Shown: in pieces, positions 2,129 to 7,799 of the stretch
Numbering within the stretch: the stretch's first letter is position 1
How the letters are laid out: every line of letters starts with the position of its first letter
Virus record (IMG/VR): IMGVR_UViG_2740892019_000005
Span: 1 to 10,614 of that record
Strand: one strand, 5' to 3'
Source of the DNA: a virus
Lineage: Duplodnaviria; Heunggongvirae; Uroviricota; Caudoviricetes
DNA: 10,614 bases
Notes under the pieces: model-generated
Databases searched by the model: none
Told to the model about the DNA's origin: nothing
What the model saw: only the letters and a program-made list of their open reading frames with translations
Position numbers and translations under genes: made by a program

Positions 2129-2971
2129 TTAGTTATGTAACTGCTTCCGGAATACAACAGCCGACGTGCTACAACGTAAAATTCGTTTGATTGTGGCCGT
2201 TGAGGAAACAGACTTGCATTTCTCAACATCATCAATGATGACCACATCCAGTACAGGTATGGCGCGGGTATGCAATGTTTTTGCACTAATAACATCACAA
2301 CCATTCAGCGGTCGAATATCTGAATCTTCAGGCACTACCAGAAGCACACGTTTTCCCGGTGCAGAAAAGCCAGCAGCAAGAGTTCGTGACAATAAAGTCA
2401 TTCCACTACGTGGCTTCATACAAATTTCAGAAATATGATTTTTTTCGTCAAAATGATGCTGGCCATCATTTTTATCATTACTCAACAACTCTGCTGTTAA
2501 TACAATCCCTGCTGTCTCAGATTTCCAGGAAATGCTGATATCCTGATCATCTGCATCAACATCATATTTCATCGAGTAAGGACTAAAGCAACGTCCAACG
2601 AACGCATCATTTACCAGTACACGCCCACCCTGTCTGACCTGAAAGTCAACGCGCCCTAAAAGCTGATTTGCTGTTACAAGCAATGCCTTTTTTCTTTTTG
2701 TTTTATTGCTCATTGCCACAAATTGTTCTGCCATCTCTCTTGTTACATCACCAGCAATTCTTTCCAGCAGTTTTACATTAACATTCTCCGTAAAATATCT
2801 GGATGACATCAGGCAGTTATTAACAATTGGCATCAGCTCACTTACGATTGTAAAAAATTCCCGGTAAAGCTCATTTTGCTTTTCAACACACAGTTCTCCA
2901 CAATCGTCCAGCTTACGCTCAAGAGCACTTAATCTTTCCATTATTGAATTAATTTTTTGCAACTCTTTCAT
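2129..2971 (-). CDS. Hypothetical protein (280 aa), no recognisable family; cargo gene upstream of the membrane protein
   Basis: Start ATG at 2969-2971 is preceded by AGGAGG (tctttgtcAGGAGGttttgATG). The ORF-track ORF extends to 3232 but that extension crosses a palindrome and a repeat and has no RBS. N-terminus looks helical/coiled-coil (MKELQKINSIMERLSALERKLDD...). Confidence 0.65.
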   Translation of the reverse strand: MKELQKINSIMERLSALERKLDDCGELCVEKQNELYREFFTIVSELMPIVNNCLMSSRYFTENVNVKLLERIAGDVTREMAEQFVAMSNKTKRKKALLVTANQLLGRVDFQVRQGGRVLVNDAFVGRCFSPYSMKYDVDADDQDISISWKSETAGIVLTAELLSNDKNDGQHHFDEKNHISEICMKPRSGMTLLSRTLAAGFSAPGKRVLLVVPEDSDIRPLNGCDVISAKTLHTRAIPVLDVVIIDDVEKCKSVSSTATIKRILRCSTSAVVFRKQLHN

Positions 2972-2994
2972 CAAAACCTCCTGACAAAGATACC

Positions 2995-3012
2995 GTGCGA
3001 CCACGGTCGCAC
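2995..3012. repeat. 18-bp palindrome GTGCGACCACGGTCGCAC, copy 2; 23 bp upstream of the 280-aa gene start
   Basis: Exact repeat of the 1328-1345 sequence. Confidence 0.85.
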
Positions 3013-3136
3013 GCTCCTGAATACATGCCCTGTTTCTTCCACCCTCGCACAGGACTGGCGAGCATGAGGGACAAACCCGCGAATCAATAGCGCGGTAAAA
3101 ACCCGGTGTGCATCGTTTTTGATTATTTCCGCACAC

Positions 3137-3204
3137 TCGCGCAGAGGAGTTCCCCGTCGGGCTACGGTCATAGTTAATGCGGGAATACGGCGACGATGCA
3201 GCGC
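3137..3204 (+). repeat. 68-bp direct repeat, copy 2
   Basis: About 94% identical to 1371-1438. The flanking upstream sequence (about 3030-3136) also resembles a lambda segment near bor that I recall, but this is unverified. Confidence 0.85.
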
Positions 3205-3214
3205 GGAATTTAGC

Positions 3215-3232
3215 GTGCGACCACGGTCGCAC
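3215..3232. repeat. 18-bp palindrome GTGCGACCACGGTCGCAC, copy 3
   Basis: Exact repeat, 10 bp after direct-repeat copy 2. Confidence 0.85.
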
Positions 3233-6249: not shown

Positions 6250-6267
6250 GTGCGACCGTGGTCGCAC
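6250..6267. repeat. 18-bp palindrome, copy 4 (GT-centre orientation; extended perfect palindrome CTGTGCGACCGTGGTCGCACAG at 6248-6269)
   Basis: Centre at about -63 relative to the inferred transcription start of the late promoter. On the plus strand it is followed by TTTTT. Confidence 0.85.
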
Positions 6268-6513: not shown

Positions 6514-6735
6514 TCAATCTTGAAACTGGAAATCAACATCAGCCATAAAGCGGTTCAACTCAGCCAGTTTTGACCCCATAGTCCCAACTAAGCGACCAGC
6601 CAGTCGGTCTGCTAGGTTGGTACTGTTGAAACCATATTCCTTTTCGAAACGTTCAACCTTCTGCCACAACTCATACAGTTCGTTAGCTATCTCCGCAACG
6701 TCGTCGCGCATTTTTTCGTTACCTTGATAATTCAT
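6514..6735 (-). CDS. Small acidic hypothetical protein (73 aa from the RBS-supported start; the ORF-track start at 6753 adds 6 aa)
   Basis: GGAGGA lies 4-5 nt upstream of the ATG at 6733-6735. No family recognised. Confidence 0.5.
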   Translation of the reverse strand: MNYQGNEKMRDDVAEIANELYELWQKVERFEKEYGFNSTNLADRLAGRLVGTMGSKLAELNRFMADVDFQFQD

Positions 6736-6825
6736 AATATCCTCCAAATTCATATAGTTAGTAGGTTATTGCCCCTCAATGACACGAACTGTAACTCTGC
6801 CAAACGAACACATCCAGTGTTATTT

Positions 6826-6841
6826 TTCACTTTTTAGTGAA
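6826..6841. promoter_or_regulatory. Inverted repeat TTCACT-TTTT-AGTGAA in the toxin-antitoxin promoter region; candidate antitoxin operator
   Basis: Perfect 6-bp arms about 60 bp upstream of the toxin start, followed by GGAGG RBS. Confidence 0.4.
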
Positions 6842-6900
6842 ATTTTTAATTTGCGCTGTTTTCTCGTTTTGGTGTATTTTATGGGTATGGAGGCTATAAT

Positions 6901-7212
6901 ATGTTTAACGTGATAACCCACCCTGCAGCACTGGATGAACTGCTTGAACTACCAGATGATTTGCGAGGTCGCATGACCAGATTAATTGAGCGACTGGAGA
7001 AAGAAGGCAACAAACTGAAGATGCCTCATAGCCGTGTAATAGGTGGAGGGCTTTTTGAACTACGAGTAGGGGATAAAAACATCGCAAGAACGCTGTACGC
7101 CTACGCGACTGGTAACGAAATTTATCTATTGCATGCATTTGTAAAAAAGACACAGAAAACACCGGTGAAGGCTATCGAAATCGCCAGAACTCGCCTGAAG
7201 GAGATGAACTGA
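6901..7212 (+). CDS. Type II toxin, RelE/ParE superfamily, HigB-like (phage Gp49-like)
   Basis: 103 aa; ...GGGLFELRVGDKNIARTLYAYATGNEIYLLHAFVKKTQKTPVKAIEIARTRLKEM matches the conserved C-terminal signature of Gp49/HigB-like toxins as I recall it. GGAGG RBS. Stop overlaps the antitoxin start (ATGA). Confidence 0.8.
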   Translation: MFNVITHPAALDELLELPDDLRGRMTRLIERLEKEGNKLKMPHSRVIGGGLFELRVGDKNIARTLYAYATGNEIYLLHAFVKKTQKTPVKAIEIARTRLKEMN

Positions 7213-7499
7213 TGAAAGCGAAAGGCATCCCGTTTAACGAAGTAAAAGAAAAACTCCTCAACACTCCAGAAGCCGTCAAAGGATATGAAGAGGCCGACAA
7301 AGAGCTGGAGATGGTAGAAATGTTATACGAAATGAGGGAAAGAGCAGGTTTAACGAAATCAGCTCTGGCTGAACGAATGGGGTTGCGCCCGTCAGCCATC
7401 AGCCGCCTGGAAAGCAATCCTTTAGGGGCAAGTATGAAAACTTTGGCTAAATATGCTCATGCCTGCGGCGCAACCATCGATATTCGCGCTGTTTATTAA
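7212..7499 (+). CDS. Type II antitoxin, XRE-family HTH (HigA-like)
   Basis: 95 aa with HTH ...LTKSALAERMGLRPSAISRLESN...; translationally coupled downstream of the toxin (toxin-first order typical of HigBA). Confidence 0.8.
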   Translation: MKAKGIPFNEVKEKLLNTPEAVKGYEEADKELEMVEMLYEMRERAGLTKSALAERMGLRPSAISRLESNPLGASMKTLAKYAHACGATIDIRAVY

Positions 7500-7513
7500 T
7501 TAGACCCTTTTAC

Positions 7514-7537
7514 CACCCCGTCCAGAAGGGCGGGGTG
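7514..7537. terminator. Strong hairpin between convergent genes (10-bp stem CACCCCGTCC/GGGCGGGGTG, loop AGAA); possible bidirectional terminator
   Basis: Seen in sequence; sits in the gap between the antitoxin stop and the stop of the 67-aa gene. No clear U-tract on either strand. Confidence 0.35.
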
Positions 7538-7541
7538 TGCA

Positions 7542-7745
7542 TCAATGATGTGAACGCTCAACAGCGATAGTTTTCTGACAATGCTGGGCAATCTCTCGCG
7601 ACATGTTGATGAGTCGTGAAACCTCACCAATATGTAGGCTGGCTTCTGGAGAAGCCAGGGTGACGCTAACCAGATCCAGAACGGCGTCAATATCTCTTAA
7701 ATTTGAATCGAGTTGTTCAAGAGTTGATACGGCTGCTTCAGACAT
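7542..7745 (-). CDS. Hypothetical protein (67 aa), probably SOS-regulated
   Basis: ORF immediately downstream (minus strand) of a LexA-box-like sequence. No TM segment and no recognised family. Weak RBS. Confidence 0.5.
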   Translation of the reverse strand: MSEAAVSTLEQLDSNLRDIDAVLDLVSVTLASPEASLHIGEVSRLINMSREIAQHCQKTIAVERSHH

Positions 7746-7783
7746 TAAATCTCATACCATTTAACTAAAAAAGGTTATTTATA

Positions 7784-7799
7784 CTGTATAAAATTACAG
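7784..7799. promoter_or_regulatory. LexA box (SOS box) taCTGTataaaattACAGgg
   Basis: CTGT-N8-ACAG with AT-rich spacer matches the E. coli LexA consensus TACTGTATATATATACAGTA. Lies about 45 bp upstream of the 67-aa gene start in its promoter region. Confidence 0.65.

Follow-up and report, generated by a model that had tools for sequence, protein, structure and literature searches.

The question raised by this locus is what kind of toxin-antitoxin pair sits, in opposite orientation to its neighbours, within a 10,614-nt stretch of viral DNA (the window), how its expression might be controlled and what it might do for the element that carries it. The pair had initially been annotated as a HigB/HigA-like module embedded in a prophage. 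Judged from sequence, it is an orthologue of gp49/gp48 of phage N15, which constitute an already characterised cassette.

Gene layout and carrier element

The cassette contains two open reading frames on the plus strand, with the toxin gene first. The toxin gene (6901-7212, 103 aa), the orthologue of tad and of N15 gene 49, encodes a predicted Gp49-type RelE-fold mRNase by homology. The antitoxin gene (7212-7499, 95 aa), the orthologue of ata and of N15 gene 48, encodes an N-terminal region of about 35 residues followed by a C-terminal XRE helix-turn-helix (HTH). The two genes overlap by one nucleotide in a TGATG junction, in which the toxin stop codon TGA (7210-7212) shares its last letter with the antitoxin start codon ATG (7212-7214). 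A Shine-Dalgarno sequence GGAGG, read in the sequence at 6889-6893 on the plus strand, lies 7 nt 5' of the toxin ATG and does not vary in two alignments (A1 and A2). The Shine-Dalgarno sequence of the antitoxin, AAGGAG (7198-7203, plus strand), is located within the final toxin codons, 8 nt 5' of the antitoxin ATG. The toxin gene comes first in all 15 cassettes examined, and the genes overlap in 14 of them, the remaining one (L072) having a 1-nt gap. The toxin-first order, the 1-nt stop/start overlap and the GGAGG ribosome-binding site listed in the initial annotation are all present at 6889-7499.

A relative with 98.9% identity over a 901-nt query (positions 6700-7600 of the window) is a complete N15-type phage-plasmid carrying a protelomerase, RepA, SopAB, CB/Cro/Q and lambda-like late genes, and the window itself holds four SopB-type centromere palindromes. 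Repeated open reading frame fragments ("MRPWSH/CDRGRT") were considered as a MITE and turned out to be an N15-type partition-site palindrome. The prophage setting proposed at the outset needs correction: the carrier is extrachromosomal, a linear plasmid-prophage of the N15 type and not a generic integrated one. The pair had also been called the only plus-strand coding unit, with which the RefSeq annotation of the relative agrees, all other genes in its corresponding stretch lying on the opposite strand.

The cassette comprises about 680 bp, bounded at approximately 6820 and 7499, and consists of an inverted repeat, a promoter and both genes. It also occurs on the IncF plasmid pETEC_80 and on an IncI plasmid, adjoining repA. 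Homology to the plasmid copies begins just 5' of the repeat, which makes the repeat part of the mobile unit, and stops at the ata stop codon. A cassette with such sharp bounds, common to N15-like phage-plasmids and IncF/IncI conjugative plasmids, illustrates how genes move between phages and plasmids. ColV-type plasmids often carry ata as a truncated pseudogene, and one plasmid copy of the cassette is located near an Abi-family gene.

Downstream, an antC-like antirepressor gene with its LexA box occupies 7542-7799 on the minus strand. The gene (7745..7542, 67 aa) encodes a protein matching phrog_10889 "anti-repressor" (E 6.5e-8), and upstream of it lies a perfect LexA box of the form CTGT-N8-ACAG (CTGTATAAAATTACAG, 7784-7799), for which the chance expectation was 0.12 such boxes. 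The pair is convergent with this LexA-controlled gene, as had been pointed out initially. In N15, the homologous open reading frame has a LexA box at the equivalent place, and AntC of N15 is a LexA-controlled antirepressor according to articles citing Mardanov and Ravin, 2007 (PMC4488713, PMC3121763). Here ata and antC converge on a GC-rich hairpin (7514-7537), which lies outside the mobile cassette; its 10-bp stem has a folding energy of -21.2 kcal/mol on the plus strand (z -3.25) and -19.2 kcal/mol on the minus strand, a U-tract is absent, and the terminator scan made no call there. The convergent arrangement, which is conserved, might couple the two units; antC is directed towards the 3' end of ata, with this hairpin without a U-tract alone in between. 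SOS-induced read-through from antC could impede tad-ata transcription or produce ata antisense RNA, reduce the antitoxin and release the mRNase in the switch from lysogeny to lysis, a scenario to which we give very little credence.

The upstream repeat and the candidate promoter

The cassette opens, on its 5' side, with a perfect inverted repeat, TTTCACT-TTTT-AGTGAAA (7+4+7; 6825-6842), a putative Ata operator. The initial annotation had recognised a perfect repeat with arms TTCACT/AGTGAA, each one base too short, and had suggested that it could be the antitoxin operator. When the 165-nt intergenic region was subjected to dinucleotide shuffling, 7.7% of the shuffles also contained a perfect 7-bp repeat; as this chance test alone is not significant, the reality of the repeat rests on its conservation and covariation among relatives. 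The repeat recurs at the equivalent position in N15 and phiKO2, in Klebsiella phages and in the plasmid copies of IncF and IncI. Among 37 distinct sequences, pairing holds in 94.6% of cells and three of the seven pairs change on both sides, a level of covariation reached by none of 500 shuffles. Several close relatives carry single-arm mismatches; in diverged cassettes, the arms change symmetrically and in parallel with the recognition helix of the antitoxin.

The best-conserved candidate promoter (6851-6878, plus strand), deduced from conservation, consists of a -35 element TTGCGC (6851-6856), a 16-nt spacer and a -10 element TGTATT (6873-6878). Every N15-like and plasmid copy keeps the TTG and (T)ATATT/TGTATT blocks; N15 itself has TTGTGT-17-TATATT. 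Measured against the consensus, the candidate is weak, and the sigma-70 consensus scan did not flag it. The repeat is situated upstream of the candidate -35 element and not across the -10 element or +1. Two other candidates were rejected as the cassette promoter. The sole sigma-70 consensus match, TTCATA-16-TATAGT (6731-6758), has a -10 element that is not conserved in N15 and lies outside the region shared with plasmids. CTGCCA-18-TATTTT (6797-6826), considered as a main promoter whose -10/+1 region the repeat would cover, has its -35 region outside the mobile cassette.

Dziewit and colleagues are said to have described, in 2007, a second promoter, internal and upstream of the antitoxin gene. 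A sigma-70 consensus scan for an internal antitoxin promoter within the toxin gene gave no match, and synonymous-site conservation across the toxin gene revealed nothing unusual except in the last nine codons. These codons carry the antitoxin Shine-Dalgarno sequence and show the highest third-position conservation (0.70, compared with about 0.5-0.6 over most of the gene and 0.68-0.69 near codons 22-33).

The comparative data on the repeat could be read in another, somewhat doubtful way, namely as a weak terminator or insulator hairpin, or as an A+T-rich UP-like element with incidental symmetry. The N15 record labels the equivalent site "putative rho-indep. transcription terminator", and the repeat, which is followed by a T-run, folds better as RNA than its shuffles do (-6.2 kcal/mol, z -2.35). 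Covariation suits an RNA hairpin equally as well as a protein-bound dyad, G-T combinations are present, the repeat precedes the -35 element, and breaks in one arm are tolerated. However, the stem of this hairpin contains just two G-C pairs, the terminator scan made no call at the repeat, and, by the gene annotation of the relative, the phage context has no plus-strand transcription running into it. The concerted change of the arms and the recognition helix also argues against a mere hairpin, as does the binding of homologous HigA antitoxins to promoter palindromes; in Streptococcus pneumoniae, HigA/HigBA binds palindromes of its own promoter (PMC7984235). Covariation and recognition-helix tracking support, but do not prove, the repeat as a putative antitoxin operator, and autoregulation through it is inferred by homology. 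Located in the mobile unit and changing in parallel with the recognition helix, the repeat provides a concrete operator hypothesis, and its variants could form, together with those of the helix, a small natural specificity series for the operators of Gp49-type toxin-antitoxin systems.

Protein families and the probable role of the cassette

The toxin matches the Pfam family PF05973 (Gp49) along the entire 90-position profile (E 2.5e-29), scoring 101.6 bits where the cutoff is 23.9. PF05973 was the sole family reported at E up to 0.01; the canonical HigB family of the Rts1 type (PF05015) was not matched, and NCBIfam gave no matches, having no specific model for this toxin. Among solved structures, the toxin sequence matched S. 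pneumoniae HigB and Mycobacterium tuberculosis HigB1 (E 5.5e-5), and a profile of toxin homologues matched M. tuberculosis HigB1 (7nbu/7awk, E about 1e-6) and S. pneumoniae HigB (6af3, E 1.2e-6). The antitoxin matches HTH_3 (E 2.8e-12, residues 38-90) and HTH_31 (E 2.9e-9) in Pfam, with an HTH span of residues 36-92, and its matches among solved structures include M. tuberculosis HigA2 (7ewc), HipB and S. pneumoniae HigA (6af3_B, residues 11-90). The original HigB/HigA-like label was right in the broad sense of a predicted RelE-fold toxin followed by an XRE-HTH antitoxin; by sequence family, the pair is a Gp49/Tad-Ata type II system and not a canonical HigB of the Rts1 type.

The toxin residues R45, E53, R55, N60, R63, F80, K82, Q85 and K86 align with K58, E66, R68, N73, R77, F93, K95, Q98 and K99 of HigB-TAC, which have been proposed to be catalytic (PMC9098466), and E53, R55, R63, F80 and K82 are invariant among toxin homologues down to 31% identity. 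As far as these alignments indicate, the conserved basic and aromatic catalytic-type residues of RelE-superfamily mRNases are kept in the toxin. A Gp49-type HigB toxin has been seen on the ribosome cleaving mRNA (7NBU; PMC9098466). All residues for which a catalytic role has been proposed in distant HigB structures, including those of the ribosome-dependent mRNases M. tuberculosis HigB-TAC and S. pneumoniae HigB, are retained, so the mRNase mechanism is reasonably transferable to the toxin, and we infer a ribosome-dependent RNase activity by homology. An AlphaFold2 model built from the toxin sequence alone was poor (mean pLDDT 45.3) and was dropped for fold search and confirmation; it contains two helices, four strands and a long C-terminal helix, in the order published for HigB.

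We consider it probable, at roughly 85%, that the cassette is a toxin-antitoxin system of the Tad-Ata class stabilising an N15-like linear plasmid-prophage. Both genes would be transcribed together, and their translation would be coupled via the TGATG overlap. The antitoxin would dimerise through its C-terminal HTH, its N-terminal part would bind and neutralise the toxin, and the toxin-antitoxin complex would repress its own promoter via the repeat just upstream of the -35 element. When the plasmid-prophage is lost in a daughter cell, the labile antitoxin would decay, and the freed toxin, as a RelE-fold ribosome-dependent mRNA endonuclease, would cleave mRNAs under translation, leading to growth arrest or death. 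Plasmid-free segregants would thereby be removed and the prophage stabilised. The binding mode and the lability of the antitoxin are presumed from its homologues.

Since the host element is a phage-plasmid, stabilisation by post-segregational killing would be the natural role. As later articles (PMC2701414, PMC5906591, PMC3581621) summarise the original study by Dziewit et al. (2007, J Bacteriol 189:1983), the N15 gp49-gp48 pair is a stabilising toxin-antitoxin system with homology to tad-ata; its toxin reportedly inhibits growth, its antitoxin relieves the inhibition, and the N15 cassette is reported to stabilise an unstable replicon. The share of the cassette in the stability of the native phage-plasmid may nevertheless be small, because a homologue on SXT had no effect on the stability of its native element (PMC2654960) and the phage-plasmid also has the SopAB partition system.

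The initial annotation had left a choice between stabilisation of the element and phage defence, of which the former is backed by the reported stabilising function of the N15 orthologue and by the phage-plasmid host, and the latter by nothing that we found to support it. Prophage toxin-antitoxin modules can act in phage defence. If abortive infection or superinfection exclusion were the main role, shut-off of host transcription would cause the antitoxin to decay and the toxin to abort the infection. This capacity of prophage modules has also been invoked elsewhere (PMC12029707), toxin residues 43-95 match the C-terminal part of the PADLOC candidate-defence protein NsnC (E 2.6e-7), and the Abi-family gene near one plasmid copy would fit such a role. 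However, no full PADLOC system model was matched, and a search of both proteins for PADLOC defence-system components gave none beyond the partial NsnC match, which reflects the shared RelE-like core, and antitoxin matches to generic HTH. Moreover, the cassette recurs on extrachromosomal replicons, as on pETEC_80, where it lies about 1 kb downstream of repA, and the secondary accounts of the N15 orthologue describe it as stabilising. Defence as the main role is therefore unlikely, although one role would not preclude the other.

It is still less plausible that the pair is a decayed or non-toxic relic, or serves as a transcription-factor pair only. Some toxins of the Gp49 family, such as M. tuberculosis HigB2 and HigB3, are not toxic (PMC9098466), and the ata pseudogenes on ColV-type plasmids attest to decay elsewhere. 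Here, however, both open reading frames are intact, every proposed catalytic residue is kept, and the toxin, whose N15 counterpart (92% identity) has been reported as functional, occurs with identical sequence in at least 17 IMG/VR loci and as RefSeq WP_001495871.1. Both genes are under strong purifying selection, with dN/dS values of 0.03-0.04 for the toxin gene and 0.06-0.09 for the antitoxin gene in a comparison with synonymous sites near saturation. Least probable of all is a ParE-like gyrase poison in place of an mRNase: the RefSeq name is merely "RelE/ParE family" and the RelE/ParE fold is common to both activities (PMC5906591), but the solved-structure matches were HigB endoribonucleases only, with no ParE at E up to 1, and the residues of the HigB/RelE catalytic set are conserved.

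Comparison with known systems

The correct label for the pair is the N15 gp49/gp48 (Tad-Ata, Gp49-type HigBA) plasmid-stabilisation module instead of "RelE/ParE family toxin / HTH protein"; beyond this correct annotation, the significance of the locus is small. HigBA of Rts1 / Proteus vulgaris shares the toxin-first operon, a ribosome-dependent mRNase of the RelE superfamily, an HTH antitoxin and plasmid stabilisation, whereas its toxin belongs to PF05015, a Pfam family separate from PF05973.

The Gp49-type HigBA systems with solved structures (M. tuberculosis HigB-TAC, 7NBU/7AWK; S. pneumoniae, 6AF3/6AF4; Vibrio cholerae HigBA2, 5JAA) resemble the present pair in the toxin subfamily, the long C-terminal helix, the E/R/R/F/K set, the dimerising XRE-HTH antitoxin and the toxin-first order. 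They differ in the low similarity of their toxins to the present one (E about 1e-6 with a profile), V. cholerae HigB2 not being recovered in the sequence search with the toxin, and HigB-TAC additionally requires a SecB-like chaperone, for which there is no gene here.

The prototype tad-ata of plasmid pAMI2 from Paracoccus aminophilus, with a toxin of COG4679/DUF891 and an antitoxin of COG5606/COG1396 (PMC2701414; PMC3832669), has in common with our pair the toxin-first order, the Gp49/DUF891 RelE-like toxin, the XRE-HTH antitoxin and plasmid stabilisation. This alphaproteobacterial plasmid system is a distant homologue, likened here by description.

The closest counterpart is N15 gp49/gp48, with proteins of equal size (103 and 95 aa) and full-length amino acid identities of 92% for the toxin and 85% for the antitoxin. 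The gene order, the 1-nt overlap, the upstream repeat and the linear phage-plasmid type are all alike, as are the neighbours gene 50 and gene 51 (both divergent), antC (convergent) and gene 47. The two loci differ as allelic variants do: DNA identity over the 901-nt query is about 78%, synonymous sites approach saturation, the promoter spacer has 17 nt in N15 and 16 nt here, and the antitoxin stop codon is separated from the end of antC by 64 bp in N15 and by 42 bp in the present element.

The gene pair and its host element

Two plus-strand genes, toxin first and overlapping by one nucleotide, had been proposed in the initial annotation, and they are confirmed as ORFs of 103 aa (toxin, tad, 6901-7212) and 95 aa (antitoxin, ata, 7212-7499) sharing a single base in the motif TGATG. 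The GGAGG ribosome-binding site of the toxin gene is likewise present at 6889-6893 (+), with the ATG 7 nt downstream; an AAGGAG at 7198-7203 (+) stands 8 nt before the antitoxin ATG, and a search for an internal antitoxin promoter found none. Selection on both genes is strongly purifying: dN/dS is 0.03-0.04 in the toxin gene and 0.06-0.09 in the antitoxin gene, and synonymous sites are near saturation. A perfect TATAAT hexamer (6895-6900, GGAGGCTATAATATG) directly 5' of the toxin ATG is kept in E. coli-type and plasmid copies, and the corresponding bases are TATACT or TATGCT in N15, phiKO2, and the Klebsiella phages. The hexamer is probably an incidental feature of the SD-ATG spacer.

The pair had been placed in a prophage, which is correct for an N15-type plasmid-prophage and not for a generic integrated one, given the plasmid matches and the protelomerase and SopA of a relative. 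The 901-nt region around the pair is 98-99% identical to ~46-kb E. coli plasmid records, and 289 of its 290 matching places in the E. coli collection are on plasmids. The same region is ~99% identical to phages PhiR46_1 and YDC107_1 and 75-78% identical to N15, phiKO2, and Klebsiella N15-like phages. Genes for protelomerase, a CyRepA1/RepA replication protein, SopA, and a ParB-family partition protein are carried by pEC21Z151-46K, the closest plasmid, together with those for a CB-like repressor, Cro, and Q and with lambda-like head, tail, and lysis genes; this set identifies the plasmid as a complete N15-type linear plasmid-prophage. In its annotation, the pair is alone on its strand across the corresponding stretch, in agreement with the claim that it is the only plus-strand unit in the window.

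An 18-bp palindrome, GTGCGACCACGGTCGCAC, occurs four times (1328-1345, 2995-3012, 3215-3232, and 6250-6267), where none is expected by chance. Because phiKO2 carries the same sequence annotated as 'putative plasmid partitioning site', we identify the four copies, on sequence grounds, as the SopB-type centromere sites that are dispersed on N15-like linear plasmids. They also account for spurious 'MRPWSH/CDRGRT' ORF fragments and for a 367-aa ORF (2129-3232) of artificial length. Segment 1365-1438 (74 nt) is duplicated directly at 3131-3204 with 92% identity, a partition-site palindrome adjoining each (1324-1438 and 3131-3232). Among the partition sites in the examined stretch of pEC21Z151-46K, the copy near cos/Nu1 lacks an equivalent; the best phage match covers only 75% of the window, so the window holds additional or rearranged DNA at this place.

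Convergent with ata lies a 67-aa antC-like antirepressor gene (7745..7542, minus strand; related locus L002 3860-4127), preceded by a perfect LexA box (7784-7799), as the proposed convergence with a LexA-controlled gene had implied. Its product also matches an 'anti-repressor' PHROG. N15 has a homologous ORF with a LexA box at the same position, left unannotated in its RefSeq record; the DNA upstream of the phiKO2 counterpart showed no perfect CTGT-N8-ACAG box. N15 AntC is described, in the passages of PMC4488713 and PMC3121763 that cite Mardanov & Ravin 2007, as a LexA-controlled antirepressor required for induction. Between the converging units, outside the mobile cassette, is a GC-rich hairpin (7514-7537) without a U-tract.

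The inverted repeat upstream of the toxin gene

The perfect inverted repeat noted in the promoter region, TTTCACT-TTTT-AGTGAAA, is present at 6825-6842, each arm being one base longer than originally given. Taken alone, the repeat is not significant, because a perfect 7-bp repeat (spacer 2-8 nt) also turns up in 7.7% of shuffles preserving the dinucleotides of the 165-nt intergenic region. However, its position is conserved in N15, phiKO2, Klebsiella phages, and the plasmid copies. When 37 distinct sequences of the upstream region are compared, pairing holds for 94.6% of stem cells, and both sides have changed in 3 of the 7 pairs, counts that have few independent lineages behind them and are inflated by relatedness. 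None of 500 shuffles reached the observed covariation, and slid controls pair just 16-46%. Symmetric arm variants are TTTCAT..ATGAAA (IncF and IncI copies), TTTCTAT..ATAGAAA (related locus L058), and TTTATCT..AGATAAA (L062). The antitoxin recognition helix PSAISRLE accompanies CAC/GTG arms, and helix and arms both differ in L058 (QSGINSLM), L062 (QSALNRLE), and L066 (PSNINRIE, with TATC/GATA palindromes). Position, covariation, and the arm and helix variants are evidence that the repeat is real and selected.

As to its function, we give about even odds to a putative antitoxin operator, the role originally suggested. The covariation and the arm changes accompanying the recognition helix favor this reading, and in S. 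pneumoniae the promoter of higBA contains palindromes to which HigA/HigBA binds (PMC7984235). Against it, the covariation comes from few independent lineages, several close relatives carry one-arm mismatches (L012, L013, L018, L029, L035, L065, and the Klebsiella type), and the dyad lies immediately upstream of the best-conserved promoter candidate without overlapping it. This candidate (6851-6878, plus strand) combines a -35 TTGCGC (6851-6856), a 16-nt spacer, and a -10 TGTATT (6873-6878), compared with TTGTGT-17-TATATT in N15; a consensus-scan promoter at 6731-6758 was discarded for lack of conservation. We rank lower a hairpin or terminator, for which the N15 record annotates a putative terminator at the repeat position, but as RNA the repeat folds into only a weak hairpin (-6.2 kcal/mol).

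Farther upstream, the block ACACGAACTGTAACTCTG...ACATCCAG (6782-6818) is almost invariant in all N15-like elements. We assign it to the side of the divergent gene 50 because it is missing from the IncF and IncI cassette copies; it is perhaps a gene-50 promoter or regulatory site.

Probable toxin mechanism and antitoxin contacts

A sequence search of solved structures with the toxin retrieved S. pneumoniae HigB (6AF3, E 5.5e-5) and M. tuberculosis HigB1/HigB-TAC (7NBU, 7AWK), and a profile from 16 homologues improved all three matches to ~1e-6; ParE and gyrase-poison structures gave no match in this search. HigB-TAC has been visualized on the 70S ribosome with an mRNA substrate, with K58, E66, R68, N73, R77, F93, K95, Q98, and K99 as proposed catalytic residues (PMC9098466). 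Their counterparts in HMMER alignments are, in the same order, R45, E53, R55, N60, R63, F80, K82, Q85, and K86 of the toxin. E53, R55, R63, F80, and K82 are unvaried in homologues as far as 31% identity and correspond to E66, R68, R73, F90, and K92 of S. pneumoniae HigB (PMC7984235). The homology, the retained residues, and the lack of a ParE match are good grounds to infer that the toxin would be a ribosome-dependent mRNase. Single-sequence structure prediction of the toxin was too poor for use (pLDDT 45).

Residues 11-90 of the antitoxin align with S. pneumoniae HigA, and its HTH aligns with M. tuberculosis HigA2 and HipB. In the complex from S. pneumoniae, HigB is bound by the N-terminal strand and helices of HigA, and dimerization occurs through HigA alone; by analogy, the N-terminal part of the antitoxin would bind the toxin and the antitoxin alone would dimerize. 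On an extrachromosomal prophage, the expected role would be post-segregational killing of cells losing the element.

Mobility and relation to known systems

The complete pair also resides on the IncFII/FIA plasmid pETEC_80, with repA ~1 kb upstream, and on an IncI-gamma/K1 plasmid, at 83-85% nucleotide identity. Homology to both copies extends from ~6820, only a few bases ahead of the repeat, to the ata stop codon at 7499, so the repeat is part of the mobile cassette, and the unit limits first set at 6826-7499 essentially coincide with it. Of the cassette, only a 231-nt fragment (window 7192-7422; L008 1569-1781), at 84% identity, is present on about 170 large conjugative plasmids of E. coli and Salmonella. 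This fragment is an orphaned antitoxin relic; in E. coli D10 plasmid A, the single plasmid inspected, the annotation calls it a truncated HTH pseudogene amid IS remnants adjoining tsh. In Enterobacter phage MStein-2023a (Ravinvirus; L005 1331-2290), tad is absent, and in its place stands a small-gene pair (60 aa and 143 aa) that resembles HicA/HicB in appearance, followed by a truncated ata (63 aa). Here one TA cassette seems to have taken the place of another.

The label HigB/HigA-like holds for architecture and superfamily but not for the canonical HigB Pfam family, to which the toxin has no match; it instead matches PF05973, 'Phage derived protein Gp49-like', over its full length (E 2.5e-29). 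The antitoxin has an XRE-type HTH at residues 38-90 (HTH_3, E 2.8e-12). NCBIfam holds no specific toxin model, and the pair matches no described defence system. The proteins are identical to RefSeq WP_001495871.1 (toxin) and WP_001683870.1 (antitoxin), and at least 17 IMG/VR loci encode the toxin with 100% identity.

Dziewit and colleagues reportedly devoted a study (2007) to the N15 gp49-gp48 locus, and later papers reflect what it concluded. Tad-Ata comprises a RelE-like DUF891/COG4679 toxin and an Xre-HTH antitoxin, N15 gp49 being cited (Makarova et al. 2009, PMC2701414); Gp49-domain 'Tad toxins' have been validated and are always encoded in toxin-first operons (Armalyte et al. 2018, PMC5906591), and the N15 locus was named by Sala et al. 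2012 (PMC3581621). From sequence, we assign the pair to this Tad-Ata/Gp49-XRE family as the orthologue of a member reported to be functional. The toxin is 92% identical to gp49 and the antitoxin 85% to gp48, with equal lengths and an identical arrangement of gene order, overlap, and flanking genes. The pair is biology already known, because its gene content, order, size, and context show no departure from N15; mildly new are only the sharing of a sharply bounded cassette by conjugative plasmids and phage-plasmids and the comparative evidence in favor of an operator role for the dyad.
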